NCBI RefSeq assembly: GCF_016026235.1
Contig: NZ_CP065613.1
Reading direction: 5' to 3' (one strand)
DNA: 64,000 nt
Source of the DNA: Escherichia coli
GTDB lineage: Bacteria > Pseudomonadota > Gammaproteobacteria > Enterobacterales > Enterobacteriaceae
In this document: piece by piece, positions 9,106 to 16,849 of the stretch
Position numbering within the stretch: position 1 is the first letter of the stretch
Layout: the number at the start of each line of letters is the position of its first letter
Program-made: the position numbers and the translations under genes
The notes under the pieces: generated by a model
Databases searched by the model: none
What the model was told of the DNA's origin: nothing
The model's input: the letters and a program-made list of their open reading frames with translations, nothing else

Positions 9106-11256
9106 ATGGATACTAAAAAGATATTCAAGCACATACCCTGGGTGATTCTCGGAATCATCGGTGCATTCTGCCTCGCGGTAGTTGCATTACGTCGGGGGGA
9201 GCACGTCAGCGCCCTGTGGATCGTGGTCGCCTCTGTGTCGGTGTATCTGGTGGCGTATCGCTACTACAGTCTGTACATCGCCCAGAAGGTGATGAAACTC
9301 GACCCCACGCGCGCGACGCCTGCGGTTATTAACAACGACGGTCTGAACTACGTTCCGACCAACCGTTACGTGTTGTTTGGTCACCACTTCGCCGCTATCG
9401 CCGGTGCTGGTCCGCTGGTGGGTCCGGTTCTCGCCGCGCAGATGGGCTACCTGCCTGGCACGCTGTGGCTGCTGGCGGGGGTCGTGCTGGCCGGTGCGGT
9501 TCAGGACTTTATGGTGCTGTTTATCTCCTCTCGCCGTAATGGCGCATCTCTTGGTGAGATGATCAAAGAAGAGATGGGACCAGTACCGGGGACTATCGCG
9601 CTGTTTGGCTGTTTCTTAATCATGATCATCATCCTCGCCGTCCTGGCGCTGATTGTGGTTAAAGCCCTGGCCGAAAGTCCGTGGGGTGTCTTCACCGTTT
9701 GCTCAACCGTACCGATTGCGCTGTTTATGGGTATCTACATGCGCTTTATCCGTCCGGGGCGTGTGGGTGAAGTCTCTGTCATTGGTATCGTGCTGCTGGT
9801 TGCCTCTATCTACTTCGGTGGCGTGATTGCTCACGATCCGTACTGGGGTCCGGCACTGACCTTTAAAGACACCACCATTACCTTCGCGCTGATTGGCTAT
9901 GCGTTTGTTTCCGCACTGCTGCCGGTGTGGCTGATCCTCGCACCGCGCGACTATCTGGCAACCTTCCTGAAAATCGGCGTTATCGTCGGCCTGGCGCTGG
10001 GTATCGTGGTGCTGAACCCGGAACTGAAAATGCCTGCGATGACCCAGTACATTGACGGTACTGGCCCGCTGTGGAAAGGCGCTCTGTTCCCGTTCCTGTT
10101 CATCACCATCGCCTGTGGTGCGGTATCTGGCTTCCACGCGCTGATCTCTTCCGGTACGACGCCGAAACTGCTGGCTAACGAAACCGACGCGCGTTTCATT
10201 GGCTACGGCGCAATGCTGATGGAGTCCTTCGTGGCGATTATGGCGCTGGTTGCTGCGTCCATCATCGAACCGGGTCTTTACTTCGCGATGAATACCCCGC
10301 CTGCGGGCCTTGGCATCACCATGCCTAACCTGCATGAAATGGGTGGCGAGAACGCGCCGATCATCATGGCGCAGCTGAAAGACGTTACCGCACACGCGGC
10401 GGCGACCGTCAGCTCCTGGGGCTTCGTGATTTCGCCAGAGCAGATCCTGCAAACCGCGAAAGACATTGGTGAGCCTTCTGTCCTGAACCGTGCAGGTGGT
10501 GCGCCGACGCTGGCGGTAGGTATCGCTCATGTGTTCCACAAAGTGCTGCCGATGGCTGACATGGGCTTCTGGTATCACTTCGGTATTCTGTTCGAAGCCC
10601 TGTTCATCCTGACCGCGCTGGATGCGGGTACCCGTTCTGGCCGCTTTATGCTGCAAGACCTGCTGGGTAACTTCATCCCGTTCCTGAAAAAAACCGACTC
10701 TCTGGTTGCCGGTATCATCGGTACTGCGGGCTGTGTGGGTCTGTGGGGCTACCTGCTGTATCAGGGCGTGGTCGATCCGCTGGGCGGCGTTAAGAGCCTG
10801 TGGCCGCTGTTCGGTATCTCCAACCAGATGCTGGCAGCCGTAGCGCTGGTACTGGGCACCGTTGTGCTGATTAAGATGAAGCGCACCCAATACATCTGGG
10901 TAACTGTTGTTCCGGCTGTATGGCTGCTTATCTGCACCACTTGGGCGCTGGGTCTGAAACTGTTCAGCACCAACCCGCAGATGGAAGGCTTCTTCTACAT
11001 GGCAAGCCAGTACAAAGAGAAGATTGCTAACGGTACTGACCTGACGGCGCAGCAGATTGCCAACATGAACCACATCGTTGTGAACAACTACACCAACGCG
11101 GGCCTGAGTATTCTGTTCCTGATTGTGGTGTACAGCATCATCTTCTACGGTTTCAAAACCTGGCTTGCGGTGCGTAACAGCGACAAACGTACTGACAAAG
11201 AAACACCGTACGTTCCAATCCCGGAAGGCGGCGTGAAGATCTCTTCGCACCACTAA
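9106..11256 (+). CDS. btsT: Pyruvate/H+ symporter of the CstA family
   Basis: ORF recognised as BtsT/YjiY (MDTKKIFKHIPWVILGIIGAFCLAVVAL...); ORF track starts 5 codons upstream (9091); many TM segments. Confidence 0.9.
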   Translation: MDTKKIFKHIPWVILGIIGAFCLAVVALRRGEHVSALWIVVASVSVYLVAYRYYSLYIAQKVMKLDPTRATPAVINNDGLNYVPTNRYVLFGHHFAAIAGAGPLVGPVLAAQMGYLPGTLWLLAGVVLAGAVQDFMVLFISSRRNGASLGEMIKEEMGPVPGTIALFGCFLIMIIILAVLALIVVKALAESPWGVFTVCSTVPIALFMGIYMRFIRPGRVGEVSVIGIVLLVASIYFGGVIAHDPYWGPALTFKDTTITFALIGYAFVSALLPVWLILAPRDYLATFLKIGVIVGLALGIVVLNPELKMPAMTQYIDGTGPLWKGALFPFLFITIACGAVSGFHALISSGTTPKLLANETDARFIGYGAMLMESFVAIMALVAASIIEPGLYFAMNTPPAGLGITMPNLHEMGGENAPIIMAQLKDVTAHAAATVSSWGFVISPEQILQTAKDIGEPSVLNRAGGAPTLAVGIAHVFHKVLPMADMGFWYHFGILFEALFILTALDAGTRSGRFMLQDLLGNFIPFLKKTDSLVAGIIGTAGCVGLWGYLLYQGVVDPLGGVKSLWPLFGISNQMLAAVALVLGTVVLIKMKRTQYIWVTVVPAVWLLICTTWALGLKLFSTNPQMEGFFYMASQYKEKIANGTDLTAQQIANMNHIVVNNYTNAGLSILFLIVVYSIIFYGFKTWLAVRNSDKRTDKETPYVPIPEGGVKISSHH

Positions 11257-11264
11257 CCGTGTTT

Positions 11265-11292
11265 AGCCCCGCTTCGGCGGGGCTTTGTTCTT
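11265..11292 (+). terminator. Rho-independent terminator after btsT
   Basis: Hairpin agccccgc-ttcg-gcggggct followed by ttgttctt. Confidence 0.6.
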
Positions 11293-11305
11293 ATCAGAGT
11301 GAACT

Positions 11306-11509
11306 ATGTTTGGTAACTTAGGACAGGCAAAAAAATATCTCGGCCAGGCGGCAAAGATGTTGATTGGCATTCCAGACTACGACAACTACGTCGAGCATAT
11401 GAAGACCAACCATCCCGACAAGCCGTACATGAGCTATGAAGAATTCTTCCGCGAACGCCAGAACGCGCGCTACGGCGGCGATGGTAAAGGCGGTATGCGC
11501 TGTTGTTAA
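11306..11509 (+). CDS. yjiX: Small conserved protein YjiX
   Basis: 67-aa [55 protein letters not shown]...; immediately downstream of btsT as in K-12. Confidence 0.8.
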
Positions 11510-11519
11510 TGGAGAGAGC

Positions 11520-12476
11520 ATGAACCCGATTGCAGTTACCCTACTCACCGGTTTTTTAGGCGCGGGAAAAACCACCCTGCTGCGCCATATTCTTAACGAA
11601 CAACACGGCTACAAGATTGCCGTGATTGAAAACGAATTCGGCGAAGTCTCCGTTGATGATCAACTAATTGGCGACCGCGCCACGCAGATCAAAACGCTGA
11701 CCAACGGCTGCATCTGCTGTTCGCGCTCCAACGAGCTGGAAGACGCACTACTCGACCTGCTGGATAATCTCGACAAGGGCAATATTCAGTTTGACCGTCT
11801 GGTCATTGAATGCACCGGCATGGCCGATCCCAGCCCGATTATTCAGACCTTTTTCTCCCATGAGATTTTATGCCAGCGTTACCTGCTGGACGGTGTGATT
11901 GCGCTGGTGGATGCGGTACATGCCGACGAGCAGATGAACCAGTTCACCATCGCTCAGTCCCAGGTTGGCTACGCCGACCGTATTCTGCTGACCAAAACCG
12001 ACGTCGCAGGCGAAGCAGAAAAACTGCGTGAACGCCTGGCGCGCATCAACGCCCGTGCACCGGTCTACACCGTCACCCACGGCGACATCGACCTGGGCCT
12101 GCTGTTCAACACCAACGGTTTTATGCTGGAAGAGAACGTCGTCAGCACCAAACCGCGTTTCCACTTTATCGCGGATAAACAAAACGATATTTCGTCGATT
12201 GTGGTGGAACTGGATTACCCGGTAGATATCAGCGAAGTTTCCCGGGTGATGGAAAACCTGCTTCTGGAATCGGCAGATAAACTGCTGCGTTACAAAGGGA
12301 TGCTGTGGATTGACGGCGAACCTAACCGCCTGCTGTTCCAGGGCGTCCAGCGCCTCTACAGCGCCGACTGGGACCGCCCGTGGGGCGATGAAAAACCGCA
12401 TAGCACAATGGTGTTTATCGGGATTCAGTTGCCGGAGGAAGAGATTCGGGCAGCGTTTGCGGGGTTGAGGAAGTAA
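11520..12476 (+). CDS. yjiA: COG0523-family P-loop GTPase (metal chaperone-like)
   Basis: Walker A GFLGAGKTT near the N-terminus and CXCC motif (GCICCS); start taken at ATG 11520 (MNPIAVTLLTGFLGAGKTT), giving 318 aa; the longer ORF-track start at 11436 overlaps yjiX. Confidence 0.85.
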   Translation: MNPIAVTLLTGFLGAGKTTLLRHILNEQHGYKIAVIENEFGEVSVDDQLIGDRATQIKTLTNGCICCSRSNELEDALLDLLDNLDKGNIQFDRLVIECTGMADPSPIIQTFFSHEILCQRYLLDGVIALVDAVHADEQMNQFTIAQSQVGYADRILLTKTDVAGEAEKLRERLARINARAPVYTVTHGDIDLGLLFNTNGFMLEENVVSTKPRFHFIADKQNDISSIVVELDYPVDISEVSRVMENLLLESADKLLRYKGMLWIDGEPNRLLFQGVQRLYSADWDRPWGDEKPHSTMVFIGIQLPEEEIRAAFAGLRK

Positions 12477-12487
12477 TTTTGGATGAT

Positions 12488-12518
12488 GGCCGCCATGGGG
12501 CGGCCTGAATTATTTTTT
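12488..12518 (+). terminator. Rho-independent terminator after yjiA
   Basis: Hairpin ggccgcc-atgg-ggcggcc followed by tgaattattttttg. Confidence 0.55.
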
Positions 12519-12812
12519 GTTCTGATCGCGCAGCATCGCTTCACGTAAAATTGCGTTCAGGCGAGTTTGATAGCCTTTACCTGGTCGCTTCAACCATTCC
12601 ATCACATCAGCATCAATACGCACCGAAGCCTGAGTTTTCAATGGCCGATAAAACTTACCGCGTTCGGCGTTAGACCATTGCTCATCGCTGGAAGGTGGGA
12701 TATCACTGTAATCAATATCTTCGTCGGATTTATTCGCCAGCGCCTTCAGTTCGGCCTCATGCTGCACATCGAGTGTAGAGGAGGTCCCTCGTTTATGTTT
12801 AACCATGCTCAT
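12510..12812 (-). CDS. BrnA-like antitoxin (ribbon-helix-helix C-terminal domain)
   Basis: Internal start MSMVKHKRG... chosen; C-terminal SVRIDADVMEWLKRPGKGYQTRLNAILREAML is the BrnA signature; start overlaps the stop of the upstream toxin gene by 14 bp. Confidence 0.65.
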   Translation of the reverse strand: MSMVKHKRGTSSTLDVQHEAELKALANKSDEDIDYSDIPPSSDEQWSNAERGKFYRPLKTQASVRIDADVMEWLKRPGKGYQTRLNAILREAMLRDQNKK

Positions 12813-13113
12813 AGCGATTCCTCTCTTTACGATCTGCTTTTCGTGCACTGATGATTCGAATAATTTCATTTCCGCTTTCGAAACGGATGGTATGCGCAAC
12901 CAGAATAACCACGATGCCGTAAACCAGGCCGATTGTCTGCCAGCGATACTCACCGTTTTCTATGCGTTCTTGCTGTGACAAATGTTGTGGATCATCAAAC
13001 AATAACACCGCATCTTCAAAGCGGATGCCATGTTTCACCCGATTACTTTTGGCCTTGTTTTCATCCCATTCAAACTCCATTGGCATAATTGCCATCCCTA
13101 ATTGTATATACAA
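12799..13113 (-). CDS. BrnT-like toxin (DUF497, RelE-fold ribonuclease family)
   Basis: MEFEWDENKAKSNRVKHGIRFEDA...ISARKADRKER matches the conserved BrnT pattern (WDExK...KHG...ISxRKAxxKER); start ambiguous between 13113 and the internal Met around 13083. Confidence 0.7.
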   Translation of the reverse strand: MYIQLGMAIMPMEFEWDENKAKSNRVKHGIRFEDAVLLFDDPQHLSQQERIENGEYRWQTIGLVYGIVVILVAHTIRFESGNEIIRIISARKADRKERNRYEHG

Positions 13114-13284
13114 AAATGTATCTACAATTATTCTGCAATTATAGCGTTGATGTTGGAAATAGCATCACGTTTCGAATAATCAACCATAAAATTGACAATG
13201 AGTAAGTTGGACTTGATTCATCCAATAGAATTTCTCGCCTGACATGGCACACTAAACACCTCGCTGTCGGGTAATGACTCCAAC

Positions 13285-13787
13285 TTACTGATAGTGTTTT
13301 ATGTTCAGATAATGCCCGATGACCTTGTCATGCAGCTCCACCGATTTTGAGAACGACAGTGACTTCCGTCCCAGCCTTGCCAGATGTTGTCTCAGATTCA
13401 GATTATGTCGCTCAATGCGCTGAGTGTAACGCTTGCTGATAACGTGCAGCTTTCCCTTCAGGCGTGATTCATACAGCGGCCAGCCATCCGTCATCTATAC
13501 TACGACCTCAAAGGCCGACAGCAGGCTCAGAAGACGCTCCAGTGTGGCCAGAGTGCGTTCACCGAAGACGTGGCCACAACCGTCCTCCGTATCCTGTCAT
13601 ACGCGTAAAACAGCCAGCGCTGACGTGATTTAGCACCGACGTAGCCCCAATGTTCGTCCATTTCAGCGCAGACAATCACATCACTGCCCGGTTGTATGCG
13701 CGAGGTTACCGACTGCGGCCTGAGTTTTTTAAGTGACGTAAAACCGTGTTGAGGCCAACGCCCATAATGCGTGCACTGGCGCGACAT
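13285..13787 (-). pseudogene. insB: IS1 insB', disrupted
   Basis: InsB-homologous frame split into 13527..13787 and 13285..13494 by a frameshift and an amber codon. Confidence 0.7.
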
Positions 13788-13981
13788 CCGACGCCATTCA
13801 TGGCCATATCAATGATTTTCTGGTGCGTACCGGGCTGAGAGGCGGTGTAAGTGAACTGCAGTTGCCATGTTTTACGGCAATGAGAGCAGAGATAGCGCTG
13901 ATGTCCGGCAGTGCTTTTGCCGTTACGCACCACGCCTTCAGTAGCGGAGCAGGAAGCACATCTGATGGAAATGGAAGCCAC
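13706..13981 (-). CDS. insA: IS1 InsA
   Basis: 91-aa [46 protein letters not shown]... (zinc finger plus HTH). Confidence 0.85.
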
Positions 13982-14295
13982 GCAAGCACCTTAAAATCAC
14001 CATCATACACTAAATCAGTAAGTTGGCAGCATTACCAAATTTTAATTACACTTAAGGTGTATATTTTCTATGCAAGCCATCAATTAAAGAGGTGTAATGT
14101 TCTGATGACTATTTGTAATCGTTATACATTCTGACCTGGAGTCAGAAGGTATTTCTCTGTCTGTGTATTCGCAGGCAGTGTGGTTGATTACATGAAATTC
14201 AGTACATTTGTCCTTCTCGCCTGCCTTTCGTCATTACCGACGGTATTGAATTTCGTTTTCCCCATTGGGGTTCTCCGGACAAGGAGTTGTTTGTT

Positions 14296-15528
14296 ATGCC
14301 ACGTTTTTTTGCCCGCCATGCCGCCACGCTGTTTTTCCCGATGGCGTTGATTTTGTATGACTTTGCTGCGTATCTGTCGACGGACCTGATCCAGCCAGGG
14401 ATCATTAATGTGGTCCGTGATTTTAATGCCGATGTCAGTCTGGCCCCGGCTGCCGTCAGTCTCTATCTCGCTGGAGGCATGGCATTGCAGTGGCTGCTGG
14501 GGCCGCTTTCCGACAGGGTTGGCCGCAGGCCGGTGCTGATTACCGGGGCGCTAATATTTACCCTTGCCTGCGCTGCGACAATGTTCACAACGTCTATGAC
14601 ACAGTTTCTTATCGCGCGTGCAATTCAGGGCACCAGTATCTGTTTTATTGCCACCGTTGGTTATGTCACGGTGCAGGAGGCGTTCGGACAGACAAAAGGG
14701 ATCAAGTTGATGGCGATTATCACCTCCATCGTACTGATTGCGCCGATTATTGGCCCGCTTTCCGGCGCAGCTCTGATGCACTTTGTGCACTGGAAAGTCC
14801 TTTTTGCCATCATTGCGGTTATGGGTTTTATCTCATTTGTTGGCTTACTGCTGGCGATGCCAGAGACGGTGAAGCGCGGCGCGGTTCCATTTAGCGCCAA
14901 AAGCGTCTTGCGCGATTTTCGTAATGTCTTTTGCAATCGGCTGTTCCTCTTTGGCGCAGCAACCATCTCTTTAAGCTATATCCCCATGATGAGTTGGGTG
15001 GCTGTCTCGCCGGTGATCCTGATCGACGCGGGCGGCTTAACAACTTCGCAGTTCGCCTGGACACAGGTTCCGGTGTTCGGCGCGGTGATTGTCGCGAATG
15101 CCATCGTGGCGCGTTTCGTTAAAGATCCGACCGAACCGCGCTTTATCTGGCGTGCCGTACCCCTTCAACTGGTTGGCCTCGCGCTGTTGATTATCGGCAA
15201 TCTGCTGTCACCGCACGTCTGGCTGTGGTCGGTGCTGGGCACCAGTCTGTATGCTTTCGGGATTGGTTTGATTTTCCCGACCTTATTCCGCTTTACGCTG
15301 TTTTCCAATAACTTACCGAAAGGGACCGTCTCCGCATCGCTGAATATGGTGATCCTGATGGTGATGTCTGTCTCGGTCGAAATCGGCCGCTGGCTGTGGT
15401 TTAACAGCGGTCGCTTGCCGTTTCATCTGTTAGCCGTTGTGGCAGGCGTTATCGTCGTTTTCACCCTGGCCGGATTGCTTAATCGCGTGCGCCAACATCA
15501 GGCTGCCGAGCTGGCGGAGGAGCGGTGA
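14296..15528 (+). CDS. mdtM: Multidrug efflux MFS transporter MdtM
   Basis: ORF recognised as MdtM/YjiO ([43 protein letters not shown]...); ORF track uses TTG 14287; IS1 end lies 260 bp upstream. Confidence 0.9.
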
Positions 15529-15568
15529 TTTTTGCGCGATCCTGCCGTCAGGCTCTATTCTTAACATT

Positions 15569-16849
15569 ATGAATAAACTCATTGAACTCAGACGCGCCAA
15601 AATGTTGGCGCTCTCTTTACTGCTTATCGCCGCTGCTACCTTTGTCGTTACGCTGTTTTTGCCGCCCAATTTTTGGGTGAGCGGCGTGAAGGCGATTGCT
15701 GAAGCGGCGATGGTCGGCGCGCTGGCGGACTGGTTTGCGGTGGTGGCGCTGTTTCGCCGCGTGCCGATTCCGATCATTTCTCGTCATACGGCGATTATTC
15801 CGCGTAATAAAGACCGGATTGGCGAAAATCTCGGCCAGTTCGTGCAGGAAAAATTTCTCGATACCCAATCGCTGGTGGCATTGATTCGACGTCACGAACC
15901 GGCGTTGTTGATTGGCAACTGGTTTAGTCAGCCAGAAAACGCCCGCCGCGTTGGTCAGCATCTGTTGCAGATCATGAGCGGTTTTCTTGAACTAACCGAT
16001 GATGCGCGTATTCAGCGCCTGCTTAAGCGCGCGGTCCACCGGGCGATTGATAAAGTCGATCTTTCTGGCACCAGTGCGTTGATGCTGGAGAGTATGACTA
16101 AAAACGATCGTCATCAGGTGCTGCTGGATACGCTGATCGCACAGTTGATCGCCCTTCTCCAGCGCGATAAATCGCGCAAGTTTATTGCCCAGCAAATTGT
16201 TCGCTGGCTGGAGAGCGAGCATCCACTGAAAGCCAAAATTTTGCCCACTGAATGGCTGGGCGAACATAGCGCGGAGTTGGTTTCTGACGCGGTGAATTCT
16301 TTGCTTGATGATATCAGCCGCGATCGTGCGCATCAGATCCGCCATGCGTTTGATCGCGCTACCTTCGCCCTGATCGAGAAACTGAAAAACGATCCGGAAA
16401 TGGCGGCGCGAGCCGATGCCGTAAAAAGCTATCTGAAAGAAGATGAAGCTTTTAACCGCTATCTCAGTGAATTGTGGGGGGATTTACGGGAATGGCTGAA
16501 AGCGGATATCAACAGTGAAGATTCTCGTGTGAAAGAACGTATCGCGCGGGCTGAACAATGGTTTGGCGAAACGTTAATTGCCGATGATGCCTTGCGGGCG
16601 TCGTTAAATGGTCATCTGGAACAAGCCGCACACCGCATTGCGCCTGAGTTTTCCGCATTCCTGACTCGCCATATCAGCGACACGGTAAAAAGCTGGGACG
16701 CACGGGATATGTCGCGGCAAATCGAGTTAAATATCGGCAAAGATCTCCAGTTTATCCGTGTCAACGGTACGCTGGTTGGCGGTTGTATTGGACTTATTTT
16801 GTATTTGCTGTCGCAGCTCCCGGCCTTGTTCCCCCTCGGCAATTTATAG
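15569..16849 (+). CDS. yjiN: DUF445-family inner-membrane protein YjiN
   Basis: Start taken at [27 protein letters not shown] (426 aa); ORF track extends to 15437. Confidence 0.8.

Follow-up and report, generated by a model that had tools for sequence, protein, structure and literature searches.

An IS1-marked scar between yjiA and mdtM, a common allele of the immigration control region in Escherichia coli

Introduction

The 19,389 bp between yjiA and mdtM in Escherichia coli K-12 MG1655 carry mrr, hsdR, hsdM, hsdS, symE/symR, mcrB, mcrC, yjiV', yjiT, yjiS, yjiR, rpnD' and ytiE, whereas in the stretch of E. coli DNA analysed here (64,000 nucleotides; hereafter the window) the same two genes lie only 1,819 bp apart (12477-14295). 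How did this interval become so short, what did it contain before, and is the short form peculiar to one strain? The site is the immigration control region (ICR), of which yjiA is the conserved left anchor; the ICR of E. coli and other Enterobacteriaceae was reportedly the subject of work by Sibley and Raleigh in 2004. It was defined by way of the "empty site" of the restrictionless E. coli C, it is also defence "hotspot 36", with brnAT, symE/symR and rpn named among its toxin-antitoxin (TA) residents, and a Type I system is present in only 36% of ICR loci (PMC12707154). An earlier sequence-only reading of the window had identified the locus as this known hypervariable region, an identification that our analysis supports, and had proposed that a TA pair and an IS1 took the place of the K-12 restriction genes. 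Here, we compare the window with K-12, with intact alleles of the same cassette class and with 5,426 complete E. coli genomes, and arrive at a different origin for the TA pair.

Results

The gene order btsT-yjiX-yjiA ... mdtM-yjiN-yjiM matches that of K-12 and places the interval at the ICR position. To the left, btsT (9106-11256) and yjiX (11306-11509) were assigned from the open reading frame list and family searches, and yjiA (11520-12476, plus strand), encoding a CobW-family GTPase, matched the equivalog NCBIfam NF008578 at 680 bits. The first gene to the right of the IS1-marked junction (hereafter the scar) is mdtM (14296-15528, plus strand), encoding an MFS multidrug efflux pump and matching the equivalog NF011932 at 855 bits. 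The RefSeq annotation of a genome 99.85% identical over this locus (6 of 4,093 positions differ) concurs for both anchors and gives the same gene coordinates.

Within the 1,819 bp, brnA, brnT and one IS1 were the sole supported genes. The end of yjiA at 12476, the start of mdtM at 14296 and the gene content given by the sequence-only reading all proved correct. The antitoxin gene brnA (12510-12812, minus strand; 100 aa, intact) matched Pfam PF14384, BrnA_antitoxin, at 3.1e-17, and its product is annotated in RefSeq as a "BrnA antitoxin family protein"; the toxin gene brnT (12799-13086, minus strand; 95 aa, intact) matched PF04365, BrnT_toxin, at 4.7e-24. Both domains of a BrnT/BrnA pair are thus present, with brnT upstream of brnA and a 14-nt overlap between them. 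In the convergent yjiA/brnA gap, a GC-rich hairpin (12488-12505) with seven G-C pairs, a 4-nt loop and a T-rich tail after it looks like a terminator. A native AT-rich spacer of 183 bp (13087-13269) follows brnT, then the IS1 (13270-14036, minus strand), and finally 259 bp of native mdtM upstream DNA (14037-14295, plus strand), which includes a ytiE-like mini-ORF (14104-14133). No Type I (hsdRMS) or Type IV (mrr, mcrBC, gmrSD) gene was found among interval ORFs of at least 40 aa, PADLOC returned no match for BrnT or BrnA, and an Rfam scan of 11000-16000 gave no RNA family. The yjiA-mdtM locus retains no restriction or modification gene.

Elsewhere in the window, a family scan of the ORFs that reach 150 aa within 35-37 kb and 47-64 kb named IS transposases, a truncated fimbrial usher and regulators, whereas 37016-37309 gave no match. 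The near-relative annotation of 30-55 kb lists IS elements, transport and fimbrial genes, capU, virK and lpxM (LPS/virulence-island genes), and regulators. Over 30000-54999 no complete E. coli genome was collinear with the window; the best match covered 95% of it in 6 pieces. Restriction genes were absent from the scanned ORFs and the annotated 30-55 kb alike, but most of the genome lies beyond these 64 kb, which do not suffice to tell the restriction phenotype of the strain as a whole.

Alignment to MG1655 over yjiA..mdtM, a check proposed with the sequence-only reading, showed that homology ends at the yjiA stop codon and restarts exactly at the outer end of the IS1. To locate the missing DNA, we therefore used two intact alleles, those of the O6:K2:H1 strain C 691-04A (L003) and of MEI005 (L004), which share the order yjiA, brnA, brnT, Mrr-type endonuclease, hsdM, hsdS, hsdR, symE, yjiS, yjiR, rpnD, mdtM. 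An Mrr_cat domain and a hit to a PADLOC Type IV model identify the endonuclease, and the three hsd products match the PADLOC Type I models for the methyltransferase, specificity and restriction subunits. In these alleles, the spacer that follows brnT in the window sits between brnT and the divergent endonuclease gene. The left flank of the window aligned base for base with both up to 13269, which is 13 bp before the endonuclease start codon, and the right flank was collinear with both, as well as with K-12, from 14037 on. In L003 the breakpoints fall at 16793 (left end) and 28064 (right start), leaving 11,270 bp that are missing from the window, and L004 agrees. Since both flanks align base-exactly to an intact allele 11,270 bp apart, and the breakpoints coincide exactly with the ends of the IS element, the IS1 marks a deletion, one of the two origins (deletion or replacement) that the sequence-only reading had drawn from the lack of a target-site duplication.

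The brnTA segment (12477-13269) is not confined to the short allele. It adjoins yjiA in 2,112 of 5,426 complete E. coli genomes (39%), is nearly full length in 1,780 of these, and lies on the chromosome in all places but one (2,111 of 2,112). The scar allele accounts for about 1,100 of these genomes, and the rest (~1,000) have restriction cassettes. The pair is therefore a leftover resident of the site rather than a replacement for what was lost. The sequence-only reading had named, as an arrangement that would count against it, brnTA standing next to yjiA with hsd genes elsewhere; brnTA does stand there, but with hsd directly beside it. Among the matches listed, the closest intact allele was 98.5% identical over brnTA and the spacer, and because of this distance the direct parent of the scar allele would appear to be either unsampled or old.

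The nature of the lost Type I system was addressed through its restriction subunit. HsdR of L003 has 1,087 aa and shows only 25-31% identity, in short helicase motifs, to the HsdR proteins of K-12 (type IA) and CFT073 (type IB). HsdR identity is well above 50% within a Type I family and low between families, and the values found here thus indicate that the lost system belonged to neither IA nor IB and would represent a third family. By elimination with the inventory of a review (PMC12707154), it is probably type ID. The CFT073 ICR system has been assigned to type IB (PMC2481252), and we had considered that class for the parent cassette as well. We dropped it, as the CFT073 locus is a different allele (yjiA, DUF262, hsdR of 810 aa from the "EcoAI/FtnUII family", hsdM, hsdS, symE, GmrSD, rpn, yjiN) and the HsdR comparisons give a third family. 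K-12 is unsuited as a comparator for lost gene content, because the lost genes would have been the Mrr_cat endonuclease and this third-family Type I system and not EcoKI and McrBC. The proposal that EcoKI-type, Mcr and Mrr restriction may be lacking at the site accordingly holds for the absence of the K-12-type genes and fails for the identity of those that were lost.

Elements of the IS1 family are ~768 bp long, with imperfect terminal inverted repeats of ~23 bp, and carry insA and then insB', which is read in the -1 frame; frameshifting at a slippery A6C motif yields the InsAB' transposase. The scar element, of an IS1F-like subtype, conforms to this architecture: its terminal inverted repeats are 23 nt long (IRR, 13270-13292; IRL, 14014-14036) with arms that are 87% complementary, insA is intact (13706-13981; NF033558 and a Zn-finger domain), and the slippery motif TTAAAAAAC is present. 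Relative to the IS1 copies found elsewhere in the window, its insB has lost 1 bp and gained a TGG>TAG stop. Since this 767-bp copy carries both lesions, its transposase is predicted to be non-functional and the element a pseudogene, and RefSeq notes the IS1 of a near-relative as "frameshifted; internal stop". A simple IS1 insertion is flanked by a target-site duplication of 8-10 bp. We found no direct repeat of any length at the flanks of the scar IS1 (TCGCTGTCG / AAATTTTAA), which are unrelated to each other.

The window has three IS1 copies, and fragments of IS2, IS3 and IS4 as well. The scar IS1 is 98.6% identical to the copy adjoining fecI (38019-38786) and 91.9% identical to the other one. 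Because the TAG stop is common to the scar IS1 and the copy adjoining fecI, either the scar IS1 was defective before it moved, with transposase acting in trans, or gene conversion carried the stop from one copy to another. A motif resembling an IS1 end (13 of 14 positions) occurs in the spacer at 13197-13210 and is also present in IS1-free alleles; by a rough estimate such a match is about what would be expected by chance.

We then asked how widespread the scar allele is. With a 4.1-kb yjiA-mdtM query that includes the IS1, and counting genomes in which one place covers at least 80% of it, 1,101 of 5,426 complete E. coli genomes (~20%) carry the allele. The content of the locus had been taken to define the restriction phenotype of the strain; the allele does not define a strain, being fixed in about a fifth of complete genomes. 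Each of the 40 scar matches listed is a single collinear piece at 99.8-99.9% identity, and many of the listed carriers are NDM or ESBL isolates. In a wider public assembly collection the exact BrnT protein occurs in 45,052 blocks; in each of the 10 places displayed, what comes after brnT is either IS1 genes or an IS1-sized gap without gene calls. Beyond the scar IS1, the DNA differs in 3 of these 10 places: one (L019) has a further deletion reaching iraD/uxuR, another (L021) is joined to the dcm-vsr region, and the third (L018) to a decarboxylase/permease cluster. The scar IS1 thus still acts as a substrate for later rearrangements.

Finally, we searched for an intermediate. A chimeric query of the two hypothetical junctions found no genome, among the 5,426, in which IS1 lies at one or the other end-point of an island that is still complete, and so the order of events is undocumented. 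Partial matches to this query were independent IS1 insertions, in brnT of Ec-91 and, as IS1A, near rpnD of E. coli B/BL21. Taken together, the decayed insB, the lack of an intermediate and the 98.5% identity of the closest intact allele among the matches listed point to an old, fixed allele rather than a strain-specific event.

Discussion

Our results suggest that the short yjiA-mdtM interval very probably arose by an IS1-associated deletion of ~11.3 kb from an allele carrying brnTA, an Mrr-type endonuclease and a Type I cassette. IS1 would have removed 11,270 bp, beginning 13 bp ahead of the endonuclease start codon and stopping 259 bp short of mdtM, and one copy stayed at the joint, where no target-site duplication is present. 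Of the possible mechanisms, we consider intramolecular IS1 transposition the likeliest; this is the classical "adjacent deletion", which leaves one IS copy and no target-site duplication; on this route one of the two ends of the deletion would be the original insertion site. The IS1 has since decayed to a pseudogene, and the short form is now frequent in E. coli. Still in place are an intact and possibly active brnTA operon, together with its promoter region, and the mdtM gene behind 259 bp of its native upstream DNA. ClpXP-dependent restriction alleviation, known for types IA and IB, permits loss of chromosomal hsd genes without cell death, and by analogy the loss of the Type I system here would be expected to have been survivable as well.

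The same product could have come from homologous recombination if two IS1 copies had stood in direct repeat, the first close to the Mrr-type gene and the second upstream of mdtM. IS1 insertions do recur nearby, as in Ec-91 and E. coli B/BL21, and the window has two further copies, but none of the 5,426 complete genomes has IS1 at either exact end-point together with an intact island, and the scar IS1 has no obvious mosaic structure. We consider this route possible, though doubtful. Far less credible is the view of the sequence-only reading that a K-12-like island was replaced by an incoming cassette of TA pair and IS1. The ICR does act as a replaceable cassette (PMC4498929, PMC12707154), and the short allele, once formed, probably spread between lineages via homologous recombination in its conserved flanks. 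However, brnTA with the same spacer adjoins yjiA in ~1,000 genomes with a full restriction cassette and is chromosomal in all but one of the 2,112 places; the spacer runs uninterrupted to the IS1 end and the right flank is native mdtM upstream DNA, which leaves the IS1 as the only foreign DNA in the interval. Replacement is therefore highly improbable as the origin of the allele.

Lastly, a window with three IS1 copies and fragments of three other IS types invites the suspicion, raised with the sequence-only reading, that the short interval is an assembly artefact caused by collapse across IS1 copies. The very same junctions are found in 1,101 complete genomes, each assembled independently, as well as in other public assemblies, and the scar IS1 has private mutations relative to the other copies, including the 1-bp deletion. 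Since so many independent assemblies share the junctions, misassembly is excluded for practical purposes. An IS1-associated deletion, most likely by adjacent deletion, thus remains the reading that we favour.

Does the remnant have a role of its own? BrnT/BrnA systems consist of a ribonuclease toxin neutralised by its antitoxin, with autoregulation at an operator. The spacer contains a palindrome with 14-nt arms (13099-13130) just upstream of brnT, which is probably a BrnA operator combined with the promoter. In other ICR alleles brnA is always kept, and brnT, unlike that of the window, is often truncated, or else internally deleted or hit by IS1; loss of the toxin ahead of the antitoxin is what would be expected of a TA pair. 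The pattern suggests, although it does not prove, that brnTA may constrain how far deletions extend toward yjiA. On the other side of the scar, the IRL end of the IS1 offers an outward TTGGCA, followed after 18 nt by TACACT in the flank (14023-14052), a weak match to consensus. It is conceivable, although we think it unlikely, that the scar is non-neutral, either because these two hexamers form a hybrid promoter for mdtM or because addiction to brnTA limits erosion at the yjiA edge. If the former were true, the putative promoter would alter how the MdtM efflux pump is expressed in carriers of the allele, a fifth of E. coli.

Variability of the locus and the residency of brnAT are already published, and the phenomenon and all of its components are known; the window reveals no new kind of system or mechanism, but an old allele, widespread in E. 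coli, of a hypervariable locus that is already well described. Its practical value is modest: like this strain, about one-fifth of sequenced E. coli are devoid of Type I and Type IV restriction at the classical hsd locus, which bears on transformability, phage host range and plasmid uptake. More speculatively, and in our view improbably, the absence of restriction at the ICR may have helped carrier lineages to gain plasmids. Our literature search found no paper describing this particular scar allele.

Comparison with known systems

Among characterised events, the scar resembles an IS1 adjacent deletion: a single IS1 with intact terminal repeats lies on a novel joint, has no target-site duplication, and separates flanks that are 11.3 kb apart in intact alleles. 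It differs in that the event in the window is deduced from its product and that the IS1 is by now a predicted pseudogene. BrnT/BrnA was reportedly first characterised, as a type II TA system, in Brucella abortus. The pair in the window, which is known here from sequence, is like the Brucella system in its two Pfam domains, in a toxin gene that precedes the antitoxin gene and overlaps it, and in an upstream palindrome.

Like other ICR alleles, the locus occupies the same chromosomal site beside yjiA and holds a variable cassette; unlike them, it is without any restriction or modification gene, has lost the "framework" genes yjiS, yjiR and rpnD, and carries an IS1 on its junction. A published parallel is E. 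coli C (NZ_CP020543.1), whose locus of ~6 kb contains yjiA, DUF262, a 5' fragment of hsdR, yjiS, yjiR, rpn and mdtM. Both are ICRs without a working restriction system that formed by deletion from a full cassette. However, E. coli C derives from the IB/GmrSD class, which is intact in CFT073; it has no IS at the joint, keeps yjiS-yjiR-rpn and is without brnTA. The gene content of the two loci rules out that the window allele is the published "empty site" of E. coli C itself. ATCC 8739, of the same class as E. coli C, has been eroded by IS3 and represents a third form of erosion. Because the window allele belongs to another cassette class, has also lost yjiS, yjiR and rpnD, and measures 1.8 kb against ~6 kb, it appears to be an independent and more extreme emptying of the ICR than the one in E. 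coli C. It would thus add a second "empty" form of separate derivation, probably made by IS1 from a cassette of brnTA, an Mrr-type endonuclease and a third-family Type I system.

Rearrangements at the Scar IS1 and within brnT

The IS1 pseudogene that lies on the deletion junction between brnT and mdtM (the scar IS1, window 13270-14036) is being reused by subsequent rearrangements. In three public assemblies the brnT-IS1 joint is retained and the DNA past the IS1 is different: a decarboxylase/permease cluster in L018, iraD-uxuR in L019, and dcm-vsr in L021. The arrangement in L019 involves an additional deletion of roughly 11 kb, with loss of mdtM to hypT.

Breakpoints of cassettes in the immigration control region (ICR; yjiA to mdtM) are also located within brnT. 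Three other ICR alleles carry an intact brnA beside yjiA and a disrupted brnT; in Ec-91 (L005) the toxin gene is disrupted by an IS1 insertion, in GF43 (L010) it is truncated to 63 nt and adjoins a Fic/GmrSD/Type I cassette, and in WP8-S17-ESBL-08 (L011) a pseudogene fragment of ~100 nt, apparently the product of truncation or internal deletion, occupies its position.

Putative regulatory sites were found on both sides of the scar IS1. Immediately upstream of the brnT start codon is a near-perfect palindrome, TAATTGTATATACA-AAAA-TGTATCTACAATTA (window 13099-13130), which is a candidate BrnA operator. On the mdtM side, an outward-facing TTGGCA within the left inverted repeat (IRL) of the scar IS1 and a TACACT in the flank, 18 nt apart (window 14023-14052), possibly form a hybrid promoter directed at ytiE and mdtM, with a consensus match of only 9/12. 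The ytiE mini-gene (window 14098-14133) has GTT at the position of the K-12 GTG start, and an in-frame ATG is kept two codons downstream, at 14104.

Other IS1 Copies and Variable Content of the Window

A second IS1 (window 36214-36981), IS1A/B-like and 91.9% identical to the scar copy, abuts a truncated fimD of which only the C-terminal 382 codons remain (window 35014-36162). This element, too, lacks a target-site duplication, its flanks being GGTCGAATAACG and AGACTCCTTGAG. Downstream of the shortened fimD are fimH, fimG, and fimF; since fimC, fimI, fimA, fimE, and fimB are absent at this site in the window, the strain is not expected to produce type 1 fimbriae.

A third IS1 (window 38019-38786, 768 bp) adjoins fecI, is 98.6% identical to the scar IS1, and likewise has no target-site duplication. 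Both copies have the same TGG-to-TAG stop in insB, and the 1-bp deletion of the scar IS1 is absent from the fecI-side copy. The common stop implies that this IS1 subtype was either mobilised in trans once inactivated or homogenised via gene conversion. This defective copy is also annotated beside fecI in E. coli MS15047.

The stretch at window 30000-54999 is rich in IS elements (two IS1, IS2, IS3 fragments, and a frameshifted IS4), and no collinear match to it was found among the complete E. coli genomes of the collection searched, the best having 95% coverage in six pieces. The strain may belong to a lineage with a heavy IS load, possibly one resembling Shigella.

In CFT073 (L025, 13169-13354), mdtM is missing and an rpn gene directly adjoins yjiN; therefore, mdtM is itself part of the island's variable content, as already noted by a 2025 review of the ICR (PMC12707154).
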